Translations under genes and position numbers: made by a program
NCBI RefSeq assembly: GCF_003334315.1
Contig: NZ_QOWR01000008.1
From: Escherichia coli
GTDB taxonomy: Bacteria; Pseudomonadota; Gammaproteobacteria; Enterobacterales; Enterobacteriaceae
Strand: one strand, 5' to 3'
DNA: 64,000 nt
The notes under the pieces: model-generated
Database searches by the model: none
What the model was told of the DNA's origin: nothing
Seen by the model: the letters and a program-made list of their open reading frames with translations, nothing else
Shown here: positions 14,692 to 50,470 of the stretch, in pieces
How the letters are laid out: the number at the start of each line of letters is the position of its first letter
How positions within the stretch are numbered: position 1 is the first letter of the stretch

Positions 14692-14718
14692 TTATCGGCA
14701 AGGAGGGGGGAAACTTTA
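14692..14718 (-). promoter_or_regulatory. Sigma-28 (FliA) class 3 promoter of the tar-tap-cheRBYZ operon
   Basis: Minus strand reads TAAAGTTT, 11-nt spacer, GCCGATAA: exact match to sigma-28 consensus, about 30 nt upstream of tar. Confidence 0.85.
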
Positions 14719-19234: not shown

Positions 19235-19813
19235 TTAAACAGCCTGTACTCTCTGTTCATCCAGCAGTTGTGGGATAATATCGGCAGGATTCTGGGAAAG
19301 TTTACGTCTTTTTACTGCCCGGGATGGCGGTTGACATAAGCTGCAGGCAAAGCTGCCAACAGGCTGGTGAGCGTGGGTAATAAAATTGCCGCCGCAGCAG
19401 TTGCAGCTGGAAAGTTGCAGTAATCCACTTTCAACAAACCGCACCAATGTCCAGGCACGGGTTAATGCCAGCAGTGGTCCTTCTTCTGCTTGTGGGCACT
19501 GTTCAAGGTATAAACGGTAGGCTTTGATCACCGCATCGACGCCATTACACAAACCGGTTTTCAGTAAAAACTGCCATGCATTACAGAACATCGAAGCATG
19601 AACGTTTTGTTCCCAGGTCATAAACCAGTCGGTTGAGAATGGCAGCATGCCTTTCGGCGGTGGGCTTCCGCGCAGTTCTTTATAAAGTTTTATCAGGCGT
19701 CCGCGACTTAACTGTGTTTCGCTTTCCAGCATCTGCAAACGAGCGCCCAGGGTGATCAATTCCATTGCCAGCTGAATATCCCGCGCTTCCTGAACAATGC
19801 TTTTTTCACTCAT
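19235..19813 (-). CDS. flhC: Flagellar master regulator subunit FlhC
   Basis: 192-aa ORF with zinc-binding cysteines; matches recalled FlhC. Confidence 0.96.
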
Positions 19814-21380: not shown

Positions 21381-24733
<3,353 letters not shown>

Positions 24734-39687: not shown

Positions 39688-41579
<1,892 letters not shown>

Positions 41580-41666
41580 ATTCACCCCGAATGTTGTTAT
41601 GTCTGTTTGCAGTGTAGAGCCATTGTTTGTAAACACAAAAACAACTCCGCTACATCTTATTCTTAT

Positions 41667-42218
41667 TTAATATATATCAGAAGCAGGCAGGCTGGAGGAT
41701 TTCTGCACAAGTCCGGTACAGGTTTGGCGCTGATAGTGTTGATACTTCCGTAACGCGATGCGGTAATTGTTGGTGCTGGTGGTGGGCAGCCACGGGGCGA
41801 GGATTTCATCAAGGAAACCGTCCTGCAGCTGATCGAGGGAAATATTTTGCTCGTGTAGATGATTCCCCAAACGGCGCAGACGAACGACATATTCACGCAC
41901 CGTACCTGGGCTCATTTCAGTTTGCTCAAAAAGAAATTGCTTAAAGCCGATAATATCGAAAAAATCACTCTGCGTTTTGCAATGTAAATCACCGCAAAAT
42001 CGGCACAATGCCGCCCATGATTTTTGTTCCGTTTGCCAGCCCTTTTCATCAAGCAGCGTGTCCAGGCGGGAAATCTCGATTTTATTCACTATTTTGCCGT
42101 CGCGAACGAGGGTAATGCGATCGAGTAATTTACGGCAATGCGCGCAATGGGTCTGGCTGTGTTTAAAGTCTTTAAGATAGCGGCTTAATGGCCGTCTTTT
42201 CAGGTGCTGCACCATCAT
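41667..42218 (-). CDS. fliZ: Regulator FliZ (RpoS antagonist, flagellar class 2 regulator)
   Basis: ORF 41667-42254; start moved to MMVQHLKRRPLSRYL (183 aa). Confidence 0.9.
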   Translation of the reverse strand: MMVQHLKRRPLSRYLKDFKHSQTHCAHCRKLLDRITLVRDGKIVNKIEISRLDTLLDEKGWQTEQKSWAALCRFCGDLHCKTQSDFFDIIGFKQFLFEQTEMSPGTVREYVVRLRRLGNHLHEQNISLDQLQDGFLDEILAPWLPTTSTNNYRIALRKYQHYQRQTCTGLVQKSSSLPASDIY

Positions 42219-42263
42219 TAAGAACTCCTGGTAGTCAAAGTTAAAGTGCGGCATTTACTGACG

Positions 42264-42983
42264 TTATAACTTACCCAGTTTAGTGCGTAACCGTTTAATA
42301 GCCTGGCTGTGTAACTGACTGACCCGCGATTCCCCGACCTCCAGCACTGCACCAATCTCTTTGAGATTCAGCTCTTCCTGGTAATAGAGGGTTAATACCA
42401 GTTTTTCGCGCTCCGGCAACGTTTCGATGGCTTCCATCACCCGCTGGCGCAGATTATTGTCCAGCAGTTGTTGTAGCGGGTTTTCTCGCTGATGATCATC
42501 AGTAACCAGTTCGATGCTATCGCCGTGCTCTTCGCGCCACTCATCGTAGGAGAAGAGCTGGCTGTTATTGGTGTCGAGCAACATTTGGCGATAATCGGCA
42601 ATATCGATCCCTAAACGTTCCGCTACCTCAGTTTCCGTGGCGTTGCGGCCAAGTTCCTGCTCCAGTTGCCCTATTGCCTGTGCCACTTCACGCGCGTTGC
42701 GTCGCACGCTGCGCGGCACCCAGTCACGGCTGCGAAGTTCATCCAGCATAGCGCCACGGATACGCTGCACTGCGTAAGTTGTAAATGCCGTTCCTTGTAG
42801 GGCGTCATAGCGTTCGACGGCATTAAGTAACCCAATGCCGCCCGCCTGTAGCAGATCGTCAAGTTCCACGCTCGCGGGCAGTCGAACCTGCAGGCGCAAT
42901 GCTTCGTGACGCACCAGCGGGACATAACGCTGCCACAGCGAGTGTTTATCCATTACACCTTCAGCGGTATAGAGTGAATTCAC
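42264..42983 (-). CDS. fliA: Flagellar sigma factor sigma-28 (FliA)
   Basis: 239-aa ORF with sigma-70 region 2 and 4 motifs; matches recalled FliA. Confidence 0.96.
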   Translation of the reverse strand: MNSLYTAEGVMDKHSLWQRYVPLVRHEALRLQVRLPASVELDDLLQAGGIGLLNAVERYDALQGTAFTTYAVQRIRGAMLDELRSRDWVPRSVRRNAREVAQAIGQLEQELGRNATETEVAERLGIDIADYRQMLLDTNNSQLFSYDEWREEHGDSIELVTDDHQRENPLQQLLDNNLRQRVMEAIETLPEREKLVLTLYYQEELNLKEIGAVLEVGESRVSQLHSQAIKRLRTKLGKL

Positions 42984-43008
42984 GATAAACAGCCCTGCGT
43001 TATATGAG

Positions 43009-43016
43009 TTATCGGC
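43009..43016 (-). promoter_or_regulatory. Candidate sigma-28 -10 element (GCCGATAA) of the autoregulated fliA promoter
   Basis: Minus strand GCCGATAA about 25 nt upstream of the fliA start; the -35 is a poor match. Confidence 0.5.
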
Positions 43017-43102
43017 ATGATTATCCGTTTCTGCAGGGTTTTTAATCGGACGATTAGTGGGTGAAATGAGGGGTTATTTGGGGGTTACCGGTAAATTGCG
43101 GG

Positions 43103-43128
43103 CAGAAAAAACCCCGCCGTTGGCGGGG
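43103..43128 (-). terminator. Rho-independent terminator at the end of the fliC 3-prime UTR
   Basis: Minus strand hairpin ccccgcc-aacg-gcgggg followed by a U-run. Confidence 0.75.
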
Positions 43129-43149
43129 AAGCACGTTGCTGACAAATTA

Positions 43150-43260
43150 CCATTCATGTTGCCGGATGCGGCGTAACGCCTTATCCGGCCTACAAAAATC
43201 TGCAAATTCAATAAATTGCAATTCACCTTGTAGGCCTGATAAGCACAGCGCACCAGGCAA
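43150..43260. repeat. REP/BIME palindromic units within the fliC 3-prime UTR
   Basis: gccggatgcggcgtaacgccttatccggcctac and ggcctgataagcacagcgcaccaggc match REP consensus in inverted orientation. Confidence 0.75.
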
Positions 43261-43301
43261 TTTGGCGTTGCCGTCAGTCTCAGTTAATCAGGTTACGACG
43301 A

Positions 43302-44612
43302 TTAACCCTGCAGCAGAGACAGAACCTGCTGCGGTACCTGGTTGGCTTTTGCCAGTACGGAGTTACCGGCCTGCTGGATAATCTGCGCTTTCGACATGTT
43401 GGACACTTCGGTCGCATAGTCGGCGTCCTGAATACGGGACTGCGCTTCAGACAGGTTGGTAGTGGTGTTGTTCAGGTTGGTGACTGCGGAATCCAGACGG
43501 TTTTGCACCGCACCGAGGGAGGAGCGGAAAGTATCAACCTGTGCAATCGCTTTGTCTAAAAGTGCCAGTGGATCAGCAGAAGAAGCCCCTGAGAACTGTG
43601 CAGTCGGTTTTGCTGTTGATAATTCAACAACAACTTTATTATCTGTTGCTTTTGCCGCAGTATTATCATCAAGTGCCTTTGAAACCGTTGTAGCGTAGTT
43701 TTTACCTTGGAATGTTACATATCCCGCAGCCGAGCCGTCAGAGTCAGCGGCAACTTTAATCAGTTGATCTTTCTGAGTAGCCGCAGTCGTTAGTCCATTA
43801 TCGGTGTCTGTGTATTCGACATCGGCTTTATTCAACGTGACTTTGCCGTCTGTATGATTAATCGACGCGGAGTAGAAATCATTGCCGGATTGAACGACGA
43901 ACTGTGATGTAGCAGCCCCTTTCGCATCCAGAGTGTTGTGTAACGTCAGGCTAGAAACATCGACTGTTTTACCTGTCGCAGTAGTCAGATCTTTCGCAAC
44001 AGCAGTGAAATCAACACCAACAGGTTTTGCCCCGGCGGCACCGGTAATTTGAGTAATGGAATCACTAACGTTAAGTGACTGACCCGAAACGGAGAAACCG
44101 TTCAGTCCTAATGTAGAAGAGTCAATCTTCTGCAAATCAATGCTAATAGTCTGCCCATCATTCGCGCCAACCTGAATCTTCATCGAACCATCTTTCGCCA
44201 GCACATTCACGCCGTTGAACTGGGTCTGACCGGAAACGCGATCAATTTCATCCAGACGGGATTTGATTTCGTCCTGGATTGAAGACAGGTCAGAATCAGA
44301 GTTAGTCCCGGTCGTCGCCTGAACGGTCAACTCACGCACACGCTGCAAGTTGTTGTTGATTTCAGACAGCGCGCCTTCAGTGGTCTGCGCCAGAGAGATA
44401 CCGTCGTTGGCGTTACGTGCGGCCTGAGTCAGACCTTTGATGTTAGAGGTGAAGCGGTTAGCAATCGCCTGGCCCGCAGCGTCATCTTTAGCGCTGTTAA
44501 TGCGCAGACCAGAAGAGAGGCGCTCGATAGAAGTCGACAGCGCAGACTGGTTTTTGTTGATGTTGTTCTGAGTGATCAGCGAGAGGCTGTTGGTATTAAT
44601 GACTTGTGCCAT
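43302..44612 (-). CDS. fliC: Flagellin FliC (H antigen), 436 aa, non-K-12 central domain
   Basis: ORF 43302-44633; start moved to MAQVINTNSLSLITQNN; N and C termini conserved, central region divergent and shorter than the 498-aa K-12 protein. Confidence 0.95.
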   Translation of the reverse strand: MAQVINTNSLSLITQNNINKNQSALSTSIERLSSGLRINSAKDDAAGQAIANRFTSNIKGLTQAARNANDGISLAQTTEGALSEINNNLQRVRELTVQATTGTNSDSDLSSIQDEIKSRLDEIDRVSGQTQFNGVNVLAKDGSMKIQVGANDGQTISIDLQKIDSSTLGLNGFSVSGQSLNVSDSITQITGAAGAKPVGVDFTAVAKDLTTATGKTVDVSSLTLHNTLDAKGAATSQFVVQSGNDFYSASINHTDGKVTLNKADVEYTDTDNGLTTAATQKDQLIKVAADSDGSAAGYVTFQGKNYATTVSKALDDNTAAKATDNKVVVELSTAKPTAQFSGASSADPLALLDKAIAQVDTFRSSLGAVQNRLDSAVTNLNNTTTNLSEAQSRIQDADYATEVSNMSKAQIIQQAGNSVLAKANQVPQQVLSLLQG

Positions 44613-44688
44613 GATTTCTTTTCCTGTTTTCAAGTCTACGGTTTAAGTATTGGGCTTCCACCCTTCGGCTTCGTCGCCGTCAACCCTG

Positions 44689-44715
44689 TTATCGTCTGGT
44701 CACTCACAACCTTTA
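44689..44715 (-). promoter_or_regulatory. Sigma-28 promoter of fliC
   Basis: Minus strand reads TAAAGGTT, 11-nt spacer, GACGATAA, about 75 nt upstream of fliC. Confidence 0.8.
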
Positions 44716-44788
44716 GAATTTTTTTCTAGCGGTCGAAATACTCCCCTTCCTCGTTGCTGTTCGTGCCATTAAGGCAAAAAATAAATCG

Positions 44789-44815
44789 TAAACTTTACCC
44801 CGCTTACGCCGATAA
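44789..44815 (+). promoter_or_regulatory. Sigma-28 promoter of the fliDST operon
   Basis: Plus strand reads TAAACTTT, 11-nt spacer, GCCGATAA, 45 nt upstream of fliD. Confidence 0.85.
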
Positions 44816-44859
44816 CCCCGGTATTCGTTCTATACACGTCGCATGATTAAGGAAACTAT

Positions 44860-46275
44860 ATGGCTAGTATTTCAACGCTTGGGGTTGGGTCGGGGCTGAA
44901 CTTAAGCAGCATCCTTGACAGTCTGGAGGCGGCAGAAAAATCTACCCTGACGCCGATATCAAAACAGCAAAGCTCTTACACCGCGAAACTGAGCGCCTAC
45001 GGGACGCTGAAAAGTGCACTAGAGAGTTTCCAGACAGCCAACACAGCACTGAATAAAGCCGATTTATTTACCGCCACCTCAACCACCAGCAGTTCATCGG
45101 CTTTCAGCGCCACCACCACGGGCAGCGCGATTGCTGGGAAATACACCATTAGCGTTAGCCAACTGGCGCAGGCACAGACGCTGACAACAAAAAATAGTCA
45201 AAAAGACAGTAAAGCCGCCATCGCCACCAGCGATAGCGTACTAACCATCCAGCAAGGTGGCGGTAAAGATCCGGTCACGATTGATATCAGCGCGGCTAAC
45301 TCGTCACTTTCCGGCATTCGCGATGCCATTAACAACGCCAAAGCTGGTGTCAGCGCCAGTATCATCCATGTGGGTAACGGCGAGTATCGTCTGTCCATCA
45401 CTGCTAACGATACGGGCAGCGATAACGCTATGAAACTTAGCGTCAGCGGCGACAGCGCCCTGGAAAGTTTTATGGGTTACAACGGAACGTCGGGTGATAG
45501 CAGCAATGGCATGATTGAAAGCGTCACTGCGCAAAACGCCAAACTGACAGTCAATAACGTTGAGATTGAAAACAGCAGTAACACTATCAGCGACGCGCTG
45601 GAAGATATCACCCTCAACCTGAATGACGTCACCACCGGTAATCAGACACTGACCATCAGTAAAGACACATCCAAAGCTGAAAATGCGGTTAAAACGTGGG
45701 TGGATGCCTATAACTCATTGCAGGATACGTTCAGCAGCTTAACCAAATACACCGCTGTCGATGCCGGAGCAGAGAGTCAGGACTCCAGCAATGGCGCATT
45801 ACTCGGTGACTCCACACTGCGTACCATCCAGACTCAGCTTAAAACCTTGCTCGCCAATACTCACAGCAGTTCAAACTATAAAACGCTGGCACAGATTGGC
45901 ATTACCAGCGATGCCAGTACCGGCAAGCTGGAAATCGCGACCGACAAACTGCAAACGGCGCTAAAAAAAGATGCCGCTGGCATCAGTGAAATGTTTATAG
46001 GTGACGGTAAAAGTACAGGGGTAACCACCGGCATTAGTAGCAACCTAACCAGTTGGCTCTCTTCCACCGGGATAATCCAGGCCGCAAAAGATGGCGTCAG
46101 CAAAACGCTGAATAATTTGACCGACCAGTACAACGCAGCCAGTGAGCGTATCGATACCTTAATGACGCGCTATAAAGCCCAGTTCACCCAATTAGATGTG
46201 TTAATGAACTCGCTTAACTCCACCAGTAGCTATCTGACACAGCAATTCGACACCTCAAATAGCAACTCGAAATAA
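44860..46275 (+). CDS. fliD: Flagellar filament cap protein FliD
   Basis: 471-aa ORF MASISTLGVGSGL...; clearly FliD but with many substitutions relative to the recalled K-12 protein. Confidence 0.94.
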   Translation: MASISTLGVGSGLNLSSILDSLEAAEKSTLTPISKQQSSYTAKLSAYGTLKSALESFQTANTALNKADLFTATSTTSSSSAFSATTTGSAIAGKYTISVSQLAQAQTLTTKNSQKDSKAAIATSDSVLTIQQGGGKDPVTIDISAANSSLSGIRDAINNAKAGVSASIIHVGNGEYRLSITANDTGSDNAMKLSVSGDSALESFMGYNGTSGDSSNGMIESVTAQNAKLTVNNVEIENSSNTISDALEDITLNLNDVTTGNQTLTISKDTSKAENAVKTWVDAYNSLQDTFSSLTKYTAVDAGAESQDSSNGALLGDSTLRTIQTQLKTLLANTHSSSNYKTLAQIGITSDASTGKLEIATDKLQTALKKDAAGISEMFIGDGKSTGVTTGISSNLTSWLSSTGIIQAAKDGVSKTLNNLTDQYNAASERIDTLMTRYKAQFTQLDVLMNSLNSTSSYLTQQFDTSNSNSK

Positions 46276-46290
46276 TCTTCAGGAGAAACT

Positions 46291-46701
46291 ATGTACGCGG
46301 CAAAAGGCACCCAGGCCTATGCACAAATTGGCGTCGAAAGCGCCGTAATGAGCGCCAGCCAACAGCAGCTGGTCACCATGCTATTTGATGGAGTGCTGAG
46401 CGCACTGGTTAGAGCGCGCCTGTTTATGCAGGACAACAATCAGCAAGGCAAAGGCGTCTCTTTATCAAAAGCGATCAACATCATTGAGAACGGGCTGCGG
46501 GTGAGTCTTGATGAAGAGAGCAAAGACGAATTAACCCAAAACTTGATTGCTCTTTATAGCTATATGGTCAGGCGTTTGCTGCAAGCCAATTTACGCAACG
46601 ATGTCTCCGCAGTCGAAGAAGTGGAAGCATTAATGCGCAATATTGCCGATGCCTGGAAAGAGTCTTTACTCTCCCCTTCTTTGATTCAGGACCCAGTCTG
46701 A
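46291..46701 (+). CDS. fliS: Flagellin-specific export chaperone FliS
   Basis: 136-aa ORF matching recalled FliS. Confidence 0.95.
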
Positions 46702-47066
46702 TGAACGACGCACCGCATTTGTATTTCGCCTGGCAACAACTCGTCGAAAAAAGCCAGCTCATGTTACGCCTGGCAACGGAAGAACAATGGGACGAACTCA
46801 TCGCCAGCGAAATGGCGTATGTGAATGCGGTGCAGGAGATTGCACATCTGACTGAAGAGATTGACCCGTCCATCACGATGCAGGAGCAGCTCCGCCCGAT
46901 GCTGCGCCTGATTCTCGACAACGAAAGCAAGGTAAAGCAGTTATTACAGATTCGGATGGATGAACTGGCGAAACTGGTCGGTCAGTCATCGGTGCAAAAA
47001 TCGGTGTTAAGTGCCTATGGCGATCAGGGCGGCTTTGTGCTGGCTCCGCAGGATAACCTCTTTTGA
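46701..47066 (+). CDS. fliT: FliD chaperone and anti-FlhDC factor FliT
   Basis: 121-aa ORF matching recalled FliT; start overlaps fliS stop. Confidence 0.94.
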
Positions 47067-47143
47067 ATCTGAATGAGTCGATGGCTCGCGAATAATCCGA
47101 TTACGGCTACGCTTCTAATGTTCCCCTTGAATGGAGTCGAAGA

Positions 47144-48631
47144 ATGCGTAATCCCACGCTGTTACAATGTTTTCACTGGTATTACCCGGAAGGCGGTAAG
47201 CTCTGGCCTGAACTGGCCGAGCGCGCCGACGGTTTTAATGATATTGGTATCAATATGGTCTGGTTGCCGCCCGCCTATAAAGGCGCATCGGGCGGGTATT
47301 CGGTCGGCTACGACTCCTATGATTTATTTGATTTAGGCGAGTTTGATCAGAAAGGCAGCATCCCTACTAAATATGGCGTTAAAGCACAACTGCTGGCCGC
47401 CATTGACGCCCTGAAACGTAATGACATTGCGGTGCTGTTGGACGTGGTAGTCAACCACAAAATGGGCGCGGATGAAAAAGAAGCTATTCGCGTGCAGCGT
47501 GTAAATGCTGATGACCGTACGCAAATTGACGAAGAAATCATTGAGTGTGAAGGCTGGACGCGTTACACCTTCCCCGCCCGTGCCGGGCAATACTCGCAGT
47601 TTATCTGGGATTTCAAATGTTTTAGCGGTATCGACCATATCGAAAACCCTGATGAAGATGGCATATTTAAAATTGTTAACGACTACACCGGCGAAGGCTG
47701 GAACGATCAGGTTGATGATGAATTAGGTAATTTCGATTATCTGATGGGTGAGAATATCGATTTTCGCAATCATGCCGTGACGGAAGAGATTAAATACTGG
47801 GCGCGCTGGGTGATGGAACAAACGCAATGCGACGGTTTTCGTCTTGATGCGGTCAAACATATTCCGGCGTGGTTTTATAAAGAGTGGATCGAACACGTAC
47901 AGGAAGTTGCGCCAAAGCCGCTGTTTATTGTGGCAGAGTACTGGTCACATGAAGTCGATAAACTGCAAACGTATATTGATCAGGTGGAAGGCAAAACCAT
48001 GCTGTTCGATGCGCCGCTGCAGATGAAATTCCATGAAGCATCGCGCATGGGGCGCGACTACGACATGACGCAGATTTTCACGGGTACATTAGTGGAAGCC
48101 GATCCTTTCCACGCCGTAACCCTCGTTGCCAACCACGACACCCAACCGTTGCAAGCCCTCGAAGCCCCCGTCGAACCGTGGTTTAAACCGCTGGCGTATG
48201 CCTTAATTTTGTTGCGGGAAAATGGCGTTCCTTCGGTGTTCTATCCGGACCTCTACGGTGCGCATTACGAAGATGTCGGCGGTGACGGGCAAACCTATCC
48301 GATAGATATGCCAATAATCGAACAGCTTGATGAGTTAATTCTCGCCCGTCAGCGTTTCGCCCACGGTGTACAGACGTTATTTTTCGACCATCCGAACTGC
48401 ATTGCCTTTAGCCGCAGTGGCACTGACGAATATCCTGGCTGCGTGGTGGTCATGTCGAACGGGGATGATGGCGAAAAAACCATTCATCTGGGAGAGAATT
48501 ACGGCAATAAAACCTGGCGTGATTTTCTGGGGAACCGGCAAGAGAGCGTAGTGACCGACGAAAACGGCGAAGCAACCTTCTTTTGCAACGGCGGCAGCGT
48601 CAGCGTGTGGGTTATCGAAGAGGTGATTTAA
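47144..48631 (+). CDS. amyA: Cytoplasmic alpha-amylase
   Basis: 495-aa ORF, GH13 family; matches recalled AmyA. Confidence 0.94.
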
Positions 48632-48638
48632 ATTCATC

Positions 48639-48660
48639 CCCGGCGGCAAGCCGGGGAGAT
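48639..48660. terminator. Hairpin terminator between convergent amyA and yedD
   Basis: ccccggc-ggcaa-gccgggg stem-loop immediately after the amyA stop. Confidence 0.6.
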
Positions 48661-48664
48661 TTCA

Positions 48665-49078
48665 TTACGGCAGTGGCGTCGGTAACGGCGCTTTATCCAG
48701 CGCGGCGGCACACTCTGCCGTCGGGCGATCCACACGCTCCATCGTCATACCATCGTACTCAATGGTGTTACCGTCACGCTCAACCTCGTACAGCTCACGT
48801 TTTACGGTAACGTTAGTGAGATCATCAGACATCAATGTCAACTTACCCGGCACAGCAATCACCCGCTGCCACTGACGGCAATCCAGAGTATCGCCCTCTT
48901 TAGTGACAATCAGGCTGCCTATCGCTTCCGGACTGACCAGCGCACGTTGCGGCCCTTTGGTCTGCCAGTAGCCCGCCAGCCAGTCCGGCGCGGGGGTTTT
49001 CACGACATTGTTATAGTTTTCGACTTCGGCACAGCCCGCCAGCAACATGAGCGCGCCTGCAATTGCGAGTTTTTTCAT
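48665..49078 (-). CDS. yedD: Lipoprotein YedD
   Basis: ORF 48665-49081; lipobox LAGC; matches recalled YedD. Confidence 0.9.
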   Translation of the reverse strand: MKKLAIAGALMLLAGCAEVENYNNVVKTPAPDWLAGYWQTKGPQRALVSPEAIGSLIVTKEGDTLDCRQWQRVIAVPGKLTLMSDDLTNVTVKRELYEVERDGNTIEYDGMTMERVDRPTAECAAALDKAPLPTPLP

Positions 49079-49264
49079 CATTCGTCCTGCATGAGAAGAA
49101 AAGAGGATTGTGGCATTAAAGCCCTGATGTCGCCAGCCTTTCCAGGTTCAGAGAGAAATTTGATCTAACTATTATTTTTGTGAATTATTACCCCGAAAAT
49201 AAATGTGCATGATGTATGATTCGCGACTCTTGTTTCAAACCTTCTGAGTTCAGAGGCTACATTC

Positions 49265-50470
49265 ATGTCATGGCAGCAATTCAAACACGCCTGGTTGATT
49301 AAATTCTGGGCACCCATCCCTGCGGTCATCGCGGCGGGTATTCTCTCCACTTACTATTTTGGCATTACTGGCACCTTTTGGGCTGTCACGGGTGAATTTA
49401 CCCGTTGGGGCGGTCAGCTCCTGCAGCTGTTTGGCGTCCATGCTGAAGAGTGGGGTTACTTTAAAATTATCCATCTGGAAGGATCGCCATTAACCCGCAT
49501 CGACGGGATGATGATCCTCGGTATGTTTGGCGGCTGCTTTGCCGCAGCGCTGTGGGCCAACAATGTCAAACTGCGCATGCCACGCAGCCGTATCCGCATT
49601 ATGCAGGCCATCATTGGCGGCATTATCGCTGGTTTTGGCGCGCGTCTGGCAATGGGCTGTAACCTGGCAGCGTTCTTTACCGGTATTCCTCAGTTCTCGC
49701 TGCATGCCTGGTTCTTTGCCATCGCCACTGCCATTGGTTCATGGTTTGGCGCGCGCTTTACCCTGCTGCCCATCTTCCGTATTCCCGTGAAAATGCAGAA
49801 AGTTTCTGCCGCCTCACCGCTGACGCAAAAACCGGATCAGGCGCGGCGTCGTTTTCGTCTCGGGATGCTGGTCTTTTTCGGTATGCTGGGCTGGGCGCTG
49901 CTCACGGCGATGAACCAACCAAAACTGGGGCTGGCAATGCTGTTTGGCGTCGGCTTTGGTTTACTGATTGAACGTGCGCAAATCTGCTTTACTTCGGCGT
50001 TCCGCGATATGTGGATCACCGGACGTACCCATATGGCGAAAGCAATCATTATCGGTATGGCGGTGAGTGCCATCGGGATCTTCAGTTACGTACAGTTAGG
50101 CGTTGAACCCAAAATCATGTGGGCGGGACCAAACGCGGTAATTGGTGGTTTACTGTTTGGTTTTGGCATCGTGCTGGCAGGCGGCTGCGAAACCGGCTGG
50201 ATGTACCGCGCGGTAGAAGGCCAGGTGCACTACTGGTGGGTCGGTCTGGGCAATGTGATCGGCTCGACGATTCTGGCGTATTACTGGGATGATTTCGCTC
50301 CGGCGCTGGCCACCGACTGGGACAAAATCAACCTGCTGAAAACCTTTGGCCCGATGGGTGGCCTGCTGGTGACATATTTGCTGTTGTTTACTGCGCTGAT
50401 GTTGATTATCGGCTGGGAAAAACGCTTCTTCCGCCGTGCGGCACCGCAGACTGCTAAGGAGATCGCATGA
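49265..50470 (+). CDS. yedE: YedE, YeeE/YedE family inner membrane protein (putative sulfur or selenium compound transporter)
   Basis: 401-aa polytopic ORF matching recalled YedE. Confidence 0.92.
   Translation: MSWQQFKHAWLIKFWAPIPAVIAAGILSTYYFGITGTFWAVTGEFTRWGGQLLQLFGVHAEEWGYFKIIHLEGSPLTRIDGMMILGMFGGCFAAALWANNVKLRMPRSRIRIMQAIIGGIIAGFGARLAMGCNLAAFFTGIPQFSLHAWFFAIATAIGSWFGARFTLLPIFRIPVKMQKVSAASPLTQKPDQARRRFRLGMLVFFGMLGWALLTAMNQPKLGLAMLFGVGFGLLIERAQICFTSAFRDMWITGRTHMAKAIIIGMAVSAIGIFSYVQLGVEPKIMWAGPNAVIGGLLFGFGIVLAGGCETGWMYRAVEGQVHYWWVGLGNVIGSTILAYYWDDFAPALATDWDKINLLKTFGPMGGLLVTYLLLFTALMLIIGWEKRFFRRAAPQTAKEIA

Follow-up and report, generated by a model that had tools for sequence, protein, structure and literature searches.

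The promoters from which sigma-28 (FliA) transcribes fliC and fliDST are already known, and they are a textbook part of the flagellar hierarchy. FlgM keeps FliA inactive until the hook-basal body is complete, so both promoters would be active late, at the stage where the cell needs flagellin, the filament cap and their chaperones. The sigma-28 consensus is TAAAGTTT-N11-GCCGATAA, in which the 11-nt spacing is documented; Ide, Ikebe and Kutsukake (1999) re-evaluated this consensus. In E. coli K-12, ChIP-seq placed a FliA site with a strong peak (FAT 110) at fliC, TAAAGGTT-GTTTTACGACA-GACGATAA, and another (FAT 43) at fliDST, TAAACTTT-GCGCAATTCAG-ACCGATAA (Fitzgerald et al. 2014, PMC4183435). Expression of K-12 fliC fell from 2319 to 11 when fliA was deleted (PMC4183435). 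A second study of a fliA deletion found fliC reduced 78.8-fold and fliD reduced 9.9-fold.

The locus described here lies in a 64-kb stretch of E. coli DNA, which we call the window. The gene order is fliZ, fliA and fliC on the minus strand, followed by fliD, fliS, fliT and amyA on the plus strand. The flagellin gene fliC (436 aa) occupies 43302..44612 (-) with its ATG at 44612, in agreement with the RefSeq annotation of an identical locus. The open reading frames of fliD (44860-46275, ATG at 44860), fliS (46291-46701) and fliT (46701-47066), all on the plus strand, are annotated in the same way in near-identical loci. The gene for sigma-28 itself, fliA, is present both as an open reading frame and in the annotation at 42264..42983 (-), 1.6 kb from the promoters it would serve. 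Between fliC and fliD lie 247 bp (44613-44859), a length that an earlier note on this DNA had given and that is borne out by the open reading frame starts and by the identical, RefSeq-annotated locus of E. coli strain 120899. No known RNA family turned up in this intergenic region when 40000-50000 was scanned with Rfam, and a consensus scan found no sigma-70 promoter site in it. Just downstream of fliC, at 43141-43237, the REP-type families naRNA4 and ES036 gave sub-threshold Rfam matches; in K-12 the FliX small RNA originates from this region.

Two sigma-28 motifs lie back to back in the intergenic region. On the plus strand, the fliD promoter consists of the -35 box TAAACTTT (44789..44796), the 11-nt spacer ACCCCGCTTAC (44797..44807) and the -10 box GCCGATAA (44808..44815). 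This -10 box is a perfect match to the consensus (8/8), and the only mismatch of the promoter falls in its -35 box (7/8). On the minus strand, the fliC promoter consists of the -35 box TAAAGGTT (44715-44708), the 11-nt spacer GTGAGTGACCA (44707-44697) and the -10 box GACGATAA (44696-44689), the last identical to that of the K-12 FliA ChIP-seq site. It carries two mismatches to the consensus, one in each box (7/8 for both the -35 and the -10), and the CGA core of the -10 box is kept. Each promoter points into its gene, with 76 nt between the end of the -10 box and the ATG for fliC and 44 nt for fliD.

The earlier note had placed these motifs at 44789-44815 (+) and 44689-44715 (-), which is exact to the base, and had rightly described them as facing away from each other, since both point outward. 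Its estimate that the promoters are about 75 bp apart was close; the measured distance from -35 box to -35 box is 73 bp (44716-44788). It had also reported a deviation from consensus at one position of the fliC -10 box, GAC. That deviation is present, and the second mismatch, in the -35 box, went unmentioned. The reading of the pair as sigma-28 promoters of fliC and fliDST is supported by the K-12 FliA sites, by chance statistics and by conservation.

Very likely, these motifs represent the class 3 promoters already known for fliC and fliDST, and we infer that they depend on FliA in this strain as well. The assignment is carried by the statistical excess of sigma-28 matches in the window, by boxes that equal those of bound K-12 sites save for one base in the fliD -10, by FliA-dependent expression in K-12, and by conservation. 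Sigma-28 RNA polymerase would recognise TAAAGGTT-N11-GACGATAA on the minus strand to transcribe fliC, and TAAACTTT-N11-GCCGATAA on the plus strand to transcribe fliDST. The presence of the promoters mainly confirms an intact E. coli fliAZ-fliC-fliDST region.

A survey of 5426 complete E. coli genomes revealed three very different versions of the fliC-fliD intergenic region. The window allele, type B (247 bp), is present in about 1326 of the 5426 genomes, roughly a quarter, when matches of at least 95% identity are counted; its carriers include strain HS and ST131-labelled strains, among the matches listed, and motile lineages. Type A, the version of K-12 and O157:H7, is 265 bp long, shares only about 70% identity with the window and accounts for about 3187 genomes. 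Type C is 254 bp long and resembles the corresponding regions of Salmonella arizonae and Citrobacter; about 820 genomes were assigned to it because their match to the query was confined to the 5' end of the fliC coding sequence. Over the intergenic part, type C has no nucleotide match to the window. FliD follows the same division, with about 80% identity to the window protein in type A and about 49% in type C. Despite differences in the spacers and in most of the other sequence, all three haplotypes keep both promoters, with a spacer of exactly 11 nt in each. The O157:H7 allele, although type A, has GCCGATAA as its fliD -10 box, unlike the ACCGATAA of K-12, and haplotypes A and B share the conserved block CCCCGGTATTCG that follows the fliD -10 box. 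Two short contigs (L114 and L115) in a Collinsella-labelled metagenome-assembled genome contain fliC-fliD regions that look like those of E. coli types A and C. These are almost certainly contamination of the bin, because their promoter spacers exactly match those of K-12 and of type C strains.

Conservation separates the promoter boxes from their surroundings. We aligned 33 intergenic regions and scored each window position by the fraction of regions sharing the base of the window. The four sigma-28 octamers score 0.93-1.0: 1.0 for the fliD -35 box, 0.99 for the fliD -10 box, 0.95 for the fliC -35 box and a mean of 0.93 for the fliC -10 box. The two 11-nt spacers score 0.36 (fliD) and 0.49 (fliC), their length fixed and their sequence free, and the rest of the inter-promoter region scores 0.58. 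Conserved boxes around drifting spacers are the pattern expected of functional sigma-28 promoters. Directly upstream of the fliC -35 box, the A/T tract GAAAAAAATTC (fliC strand; 44716..44726) reaches 0.86 and may, we infer, play a role like that of an UP element. Further conserved blocks are GAAATAC (44735-44741), T.TTC (44758-44762) and GCCATTAA (44765-44772). A terminator scan also picked up a terminator-like hairpin followed by a T-run at 44808-44787 (-), overlapping the fliD promoter. We treat it as probably incidental, because its stem is formed by the spacer sequence specific to this allele and is missing in K-12.

The same arrangement extends well beyond E. coli. From species-representative genomes we collected 120 loci with a pattern for the conserved region around the flagellin start codon, which makes the sampling independent of the promoters. 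Promoters were then called at 13 or more of 16 box matches, with the scan fixed at N11. In 77 of the 120 loci fliD lies divergently upstream of flagellin, and 68 of these 77 carry both sigma-28 motifs. The fliD -35 box takes the form TAAACTTT in 57 of the 68 loci and its -10 box the form GCCGATAA in 51; the fliC -35 box of the window recurs in 45. The commonest fliC promoter is TAAAGGTT-N11-GACGATAA, found in 36 of the 68 loci, including Enterobacter, Kluyvera, Cedecea, Pluralibacter and Pantoea. The GAC of the fliC -10 box, taken by the earlier note as a deviation, is thus part of the commonest form of this box and not a local peculiarity.

The region between the promoters may hold a second regulatory site. 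At 44728..44770 there is an inverted repeat, AGCGGTCGAAATACTC-N11-TGCTGTTCGTGCCATT, that resembles an FlhD4C2 box and matches 20 of 28 consensus positions. The published FlhDC consensus is AAYGSSNNAAATAGCG-N10-12-CGCTATTTNNSSCRTT, with two 16-bp inverted arms. Across the 64-kb window, only nine placements, 44728-44770 among them, reach a score of at least 20/28. The consensus is loose, however: scores of 19-20/28 occur near class 2 promoters expected from K-12 coordinates (e.g. 43044, upstream of fliA) and also at apparently unrelated sites. The assignment of 44728-44770 as an FlhD4C2 site therefore rests mainly on position, conservation and K-12 binding. At the same position the score is 19 in K-12, 22 in type C and 20 in the window. 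The left arm contains an AAATA core, and the conserved blocks GAAATAC, T.TTC and GCCATTAA all fall within the arms. In the right arm, the core reads TGTTC in the window and TATTC in nearly all relatives, owing to a G at 44759 where the relatives have an A.

Taken with the K-12 data, 44728-44770 is a probable FlhD4C2 site and the presumed class 2 input of fliDST. Most likely it would give fliDST a second, class 2 input through FlhDC and sigma-70. An FlhD4C2-box-like element upstream of the fliD sigma-28 promoter is what would be shared with the dual class 2/class 3 promoters, a group that comprises those of the fliDST, flgKL, flgMN, fliAZ and fliL operons. The FlhDC ChIP peaks of fliA and fliL are only about 25 bp away from the sigma-28 motif, whereas the candidate box of fliD is about 55 bp upstream of it. 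Sigma-28, to which the earlier note assigned fliDST, is not the only input of this operon, which in K-12 is also under FlhDC control.

How much the sigma-28 site contributes to fliDST is a separate question. The chances are about even that the site is real but secondary, with fliDST transcribed mainly from an FlhDC-activated sigma-70 promoter acting through 44728-44770 and the sigma-28 promoter mattering only in particular situations, for example during filament repair or swarming. From 633 in the wild type, K-12 fliDST expression dropped to 356 when FliA was missing and to only 3 when FlhD was missing; by ChIP-qPCR, FlhDC occupied the K-12 fliDST promoter (PMC4183435). For genes under dual regulation, the authors of that study concluded that the contribution of FliA in exponential phase is small. 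A gSELEX screen for FlhDC gave only a weak peak at fliDST (intensity 6). The conserved FlhDC-box-like element at the same position in relatives fits a mainly class 2 operon, as does a weak K-12 start upstream of the sigma-28 -35 box (Kim 2012). Other data speak for a larger role of sigma-28. The 9.9-fold drop of fliD in the fliA deletion of the second study is one such result, and overexpression of FliA in an flhD deletion brought fliD expression back to the wild-type level or above (PMC4183435). The window itself adds two points on this side: its fliD -10 box is the perfect GCCGATAA, nearer to consensus than the ACCGATAA of K-12, and the right arm of its candidate FlhDC box departs from the core found in nearly all relatives. 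A secondary role for the fliD site would complement the assignment of the two motifs as class 3 promoters; it is not an alternative that excludes it.

The spacing between the two promoters differs among the haplotypes. The gap between -35 boxes is 92 bp in type A and 93 bp in type C, compared with 73 bp in the window, so that the check proposed in the earlier note, whether promoter spacing is conserved across alleles, came out negative. Among the species loci, 30 have a gap of 91-95 bp, nearly all of them in Enterobacteriaceae. Only one locus has a gap similar to that of the window, at 74 bp; it comes from a Pseudocitrobacter-labelled metagenome-assembled genome and has the same fliC spacer sequence as the window. 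Relative to K-12, the window lacks the 19-bp segment AAAAACAGCCATTTTTTGT (K-12 locus L002:2593-2611) at 44726/44727. In K-12 this segment is flanked by A/T runs, and it contains a T-run found in nearly all other aligned sequences. On the aligned sequences, the short gap apparently is most simply a derived 19-bp deletion, because the genera whose FliD is closest to that of the window (Cedecea, Dryocola and an Enterobacter) have the long form. The deletion sits on the fliC side of the candidate FlhDC box, between it and the A/T tract, so that the box keeps its distance from the fliD promoter.

The shorter gap could in principle alter the strength of fliC, its coupling to FlhDC or the fliC:fliD ratio relative to K-12-type strains, although we consider this unlikely. 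The deletion brings the candidate FlhD4C2 box right up to the fliC A/T tract and takes away a second such tract, and a gap of 73 bp stands out against the 92-93 bp of the other two haplotypes and the 91-95 bp of the 30 species loci. However, the allele is common (about 1326 of the 5426 genomes, motile lineages among them), which shows that it is compatible with function. In addition, Pantoea, Gilliamella and Proteus have gaps of 104-399 bp. Such values in distant genera indicate that neither promoter needs to lie at a fixed distance from the other, and that spacing as such is not critical.

It is quite improbable, though conceivable from the alignment, that the deletion and the A-to-G change in the right arm together could shift the class 2/class 3 balance of fliC and fliDST. 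If such a shift did occur, it would be a natural regulatory polymorphism linked to the H-antigen haplotype. Likewise, an effect of the short gap on flagellin or cap expression would bear on motility and on flagellin-driven immune recognition in common lineages. A natural separation of class 2 and class 3 elements is found in E. coli strain 2015C-3121 (L004:2471-3512), which carries a type A allele with an IS1 inserted at the fliD -35 box. The 9-bp duplication made by this insertion keeps the sigma-28 promoter intact beside fliD, while the insertion has pushed the candidate FlhDC box, along with the fliC promoter, about 770 bp away.

The transcription starts of both promoters can be predicted from those of other sigma-28 promoters. 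Salmonella fliC has a leader of 62 nt, which places the start at the 8th base after the -10 box in the type C sequence. At the sigma-28 promoter of aer, transcription begins 6 bp past the -10 octamer. On the minus strand, the fliC start is accordingly predicted at 44681..44683, 6-8 nt past the -10 box, with a 5' untranslated region of about 69-71 nt. On the plus strand, the aer distance would put the sigma-28 start of fliDST at 44821..44823, leaving a 5' untranslated region of about 37-39 nt. In Enterobacter, the fliC start seen by RNA-seq agrees with promoter elements annotated from K-12 (PMC10705468), and the Enterobacter loci in our species set have the same fliC boxes as the window.

Published start maps of K-12 add little at these positions. 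The start table of Kim 2012 has no start at either of the predicted sigma-28 positions. It does list a fliD start with 3 reads, 79 nt before the ATG, and a fliC start with 2 reads at an implausible site. Very low flagellar expression in that culture is a more likely explanation of the missing starts than absent promoters. We did not equate the listed fliD start with a class 2 start: the centre of the candidate box would fall at about -31, which leaves too little distance for an activator working from upstream, and so the start was not taken as FlhDC-activated. A class 2 start of fliD was located neither in the Kim 2012 table nor from the position of the candidate box. The text supplements of Cappable-seq and SMRT-Cappable-seq contain no entry for these coordinates or genes.

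The predicted fliC leader (44613..44681, minus strand) would contain two short hairpins near its 5' end and the Shine-Dalgarno region. Its predicted fold has a minimum free energy of -14.4 kcal/mol (z = -2.0). The first hairpin spans +3..+16 (44679-44666), and one of its pairs covaries, appearing as C-G, U-G or U-A across 24 taxa. The second spans +19..+30 (44663-44652) and is closed by U-G in the window, by U-A in K-12 and by C-G in type C. Hairpins at the 5' end of an mRNA often stabilise it.

Sigma-28 motifs are rare enough for their number in the window to be informative. At no more than two mismatches to the consensus, the 64-kb window contains 4 matches where 0.02 are expected, and none of 100 shuffles reaches 4. 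All four are at flagellar or chemotaxis genes: in addition to the fliC and fliD promoters, they are the tar promoter (14692-14718, minus strand) and the motA promoter (19278-19304, minus strand). At no more than three mismatches there are 5 matches against 0.65 expected, the fifth being TGAAATTG-N11-GCCGATAA inside otsA (22510-22536, plus strand). All five sites have K-12 FliA ChIP-seq entries; those of tar, motA and otsA are identical to them throughout, and those of fliC and fliD correspond to them in the boxes. The intragenic otsA site has no detectable effect on expression in K-12 (Fitzgerald et al. 2014, PMC4183435). A chance resemblance in an A/T-rich intergenic region can practically be dismissed: apart from the Kim 2012 table, which lacks starts at the predicted positions, nothing specific speaks for it, and it is opposed by the expectation of 0.02 matches per window, by boxes equal to bound K-12 sites save for one base in the fliD -10, by the difference between boxes (0.93-1.0) and spacers (0.36-0.49), and by the presence of both promoters in 68 of 77 species loci.

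Of the known systems, the K-12 fliC and fliDST promoters are those most like the two promoters of the window. The two regions share their genes, with the same divergent arrangement and N11 spacing, and they share the fliC boxes TAAAGGTT and GACGATAA and the fliD -35 box TAAACTTT. Counted from the -10 box, the ATG of fliC comes after 76 nt in both, and that of fliD after nearly the same distance, 44 nt here against 43 in K-12. The differences lie in the fliD -10 box, where the window has a G at the first base (GCCGATAA instead of ACCGATAA), in the spacer sequences, in the gap between -35 boxes (73 bp compared with 92) and in an overall intergenic identity of only about 70%. The Salmonella/Citrobacter type of region, represented in E. 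coli by haplotype C, shares the back-to-back N11 sigma-28 promoters, the fliD promoter TAAACTTT-N11-GCCGATAA and the FlhDC-box-like element between the promoters. It differs in its fliC boxes, TAAAGTTC and GCCGATAC, in a gap of 93-94 bp and in a shorter fliC leader, the ATG following the -10 box after 69 nt rather than the 76 nt of the window.

A further comparison is with the Enterobacter fliC promoter that is targeted by TldR, a group of prophage-encoded RNA-guided repressors (Wiegand et al., PMC10705468). Its fliC boxes, TAAAGGTT and GACGATAA, are those of the window. The 11-nt spacer with which a guide would pair differs between the alleles. GTTAT, the target-adjacent motif of the TldR repressors of fliC in Enterobacter (PMC10705468), is present in the window at 44688-44692 (+), where it arises from the fliC -10 box read on the opposite strand. 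We considered whether the fliC spacer has been selected to escape TldR guides; this idea is unsupported, as the divergence looks like the drift of unconstrained sequence.

Together, these comparisons show three things. First, the sigma-28 octamers and their 11-nt spacing are strongly held while the sequence around them drifts. Second, many genera conserve the seemingly non-consensus GAC of the fliC -10 box. Finally, E. coli has three very different control regions between fliC and fliD, and that of the window, set against those of K-12 and the Salmonella/Citrobacter type, has an unusually short gap between its promoters.
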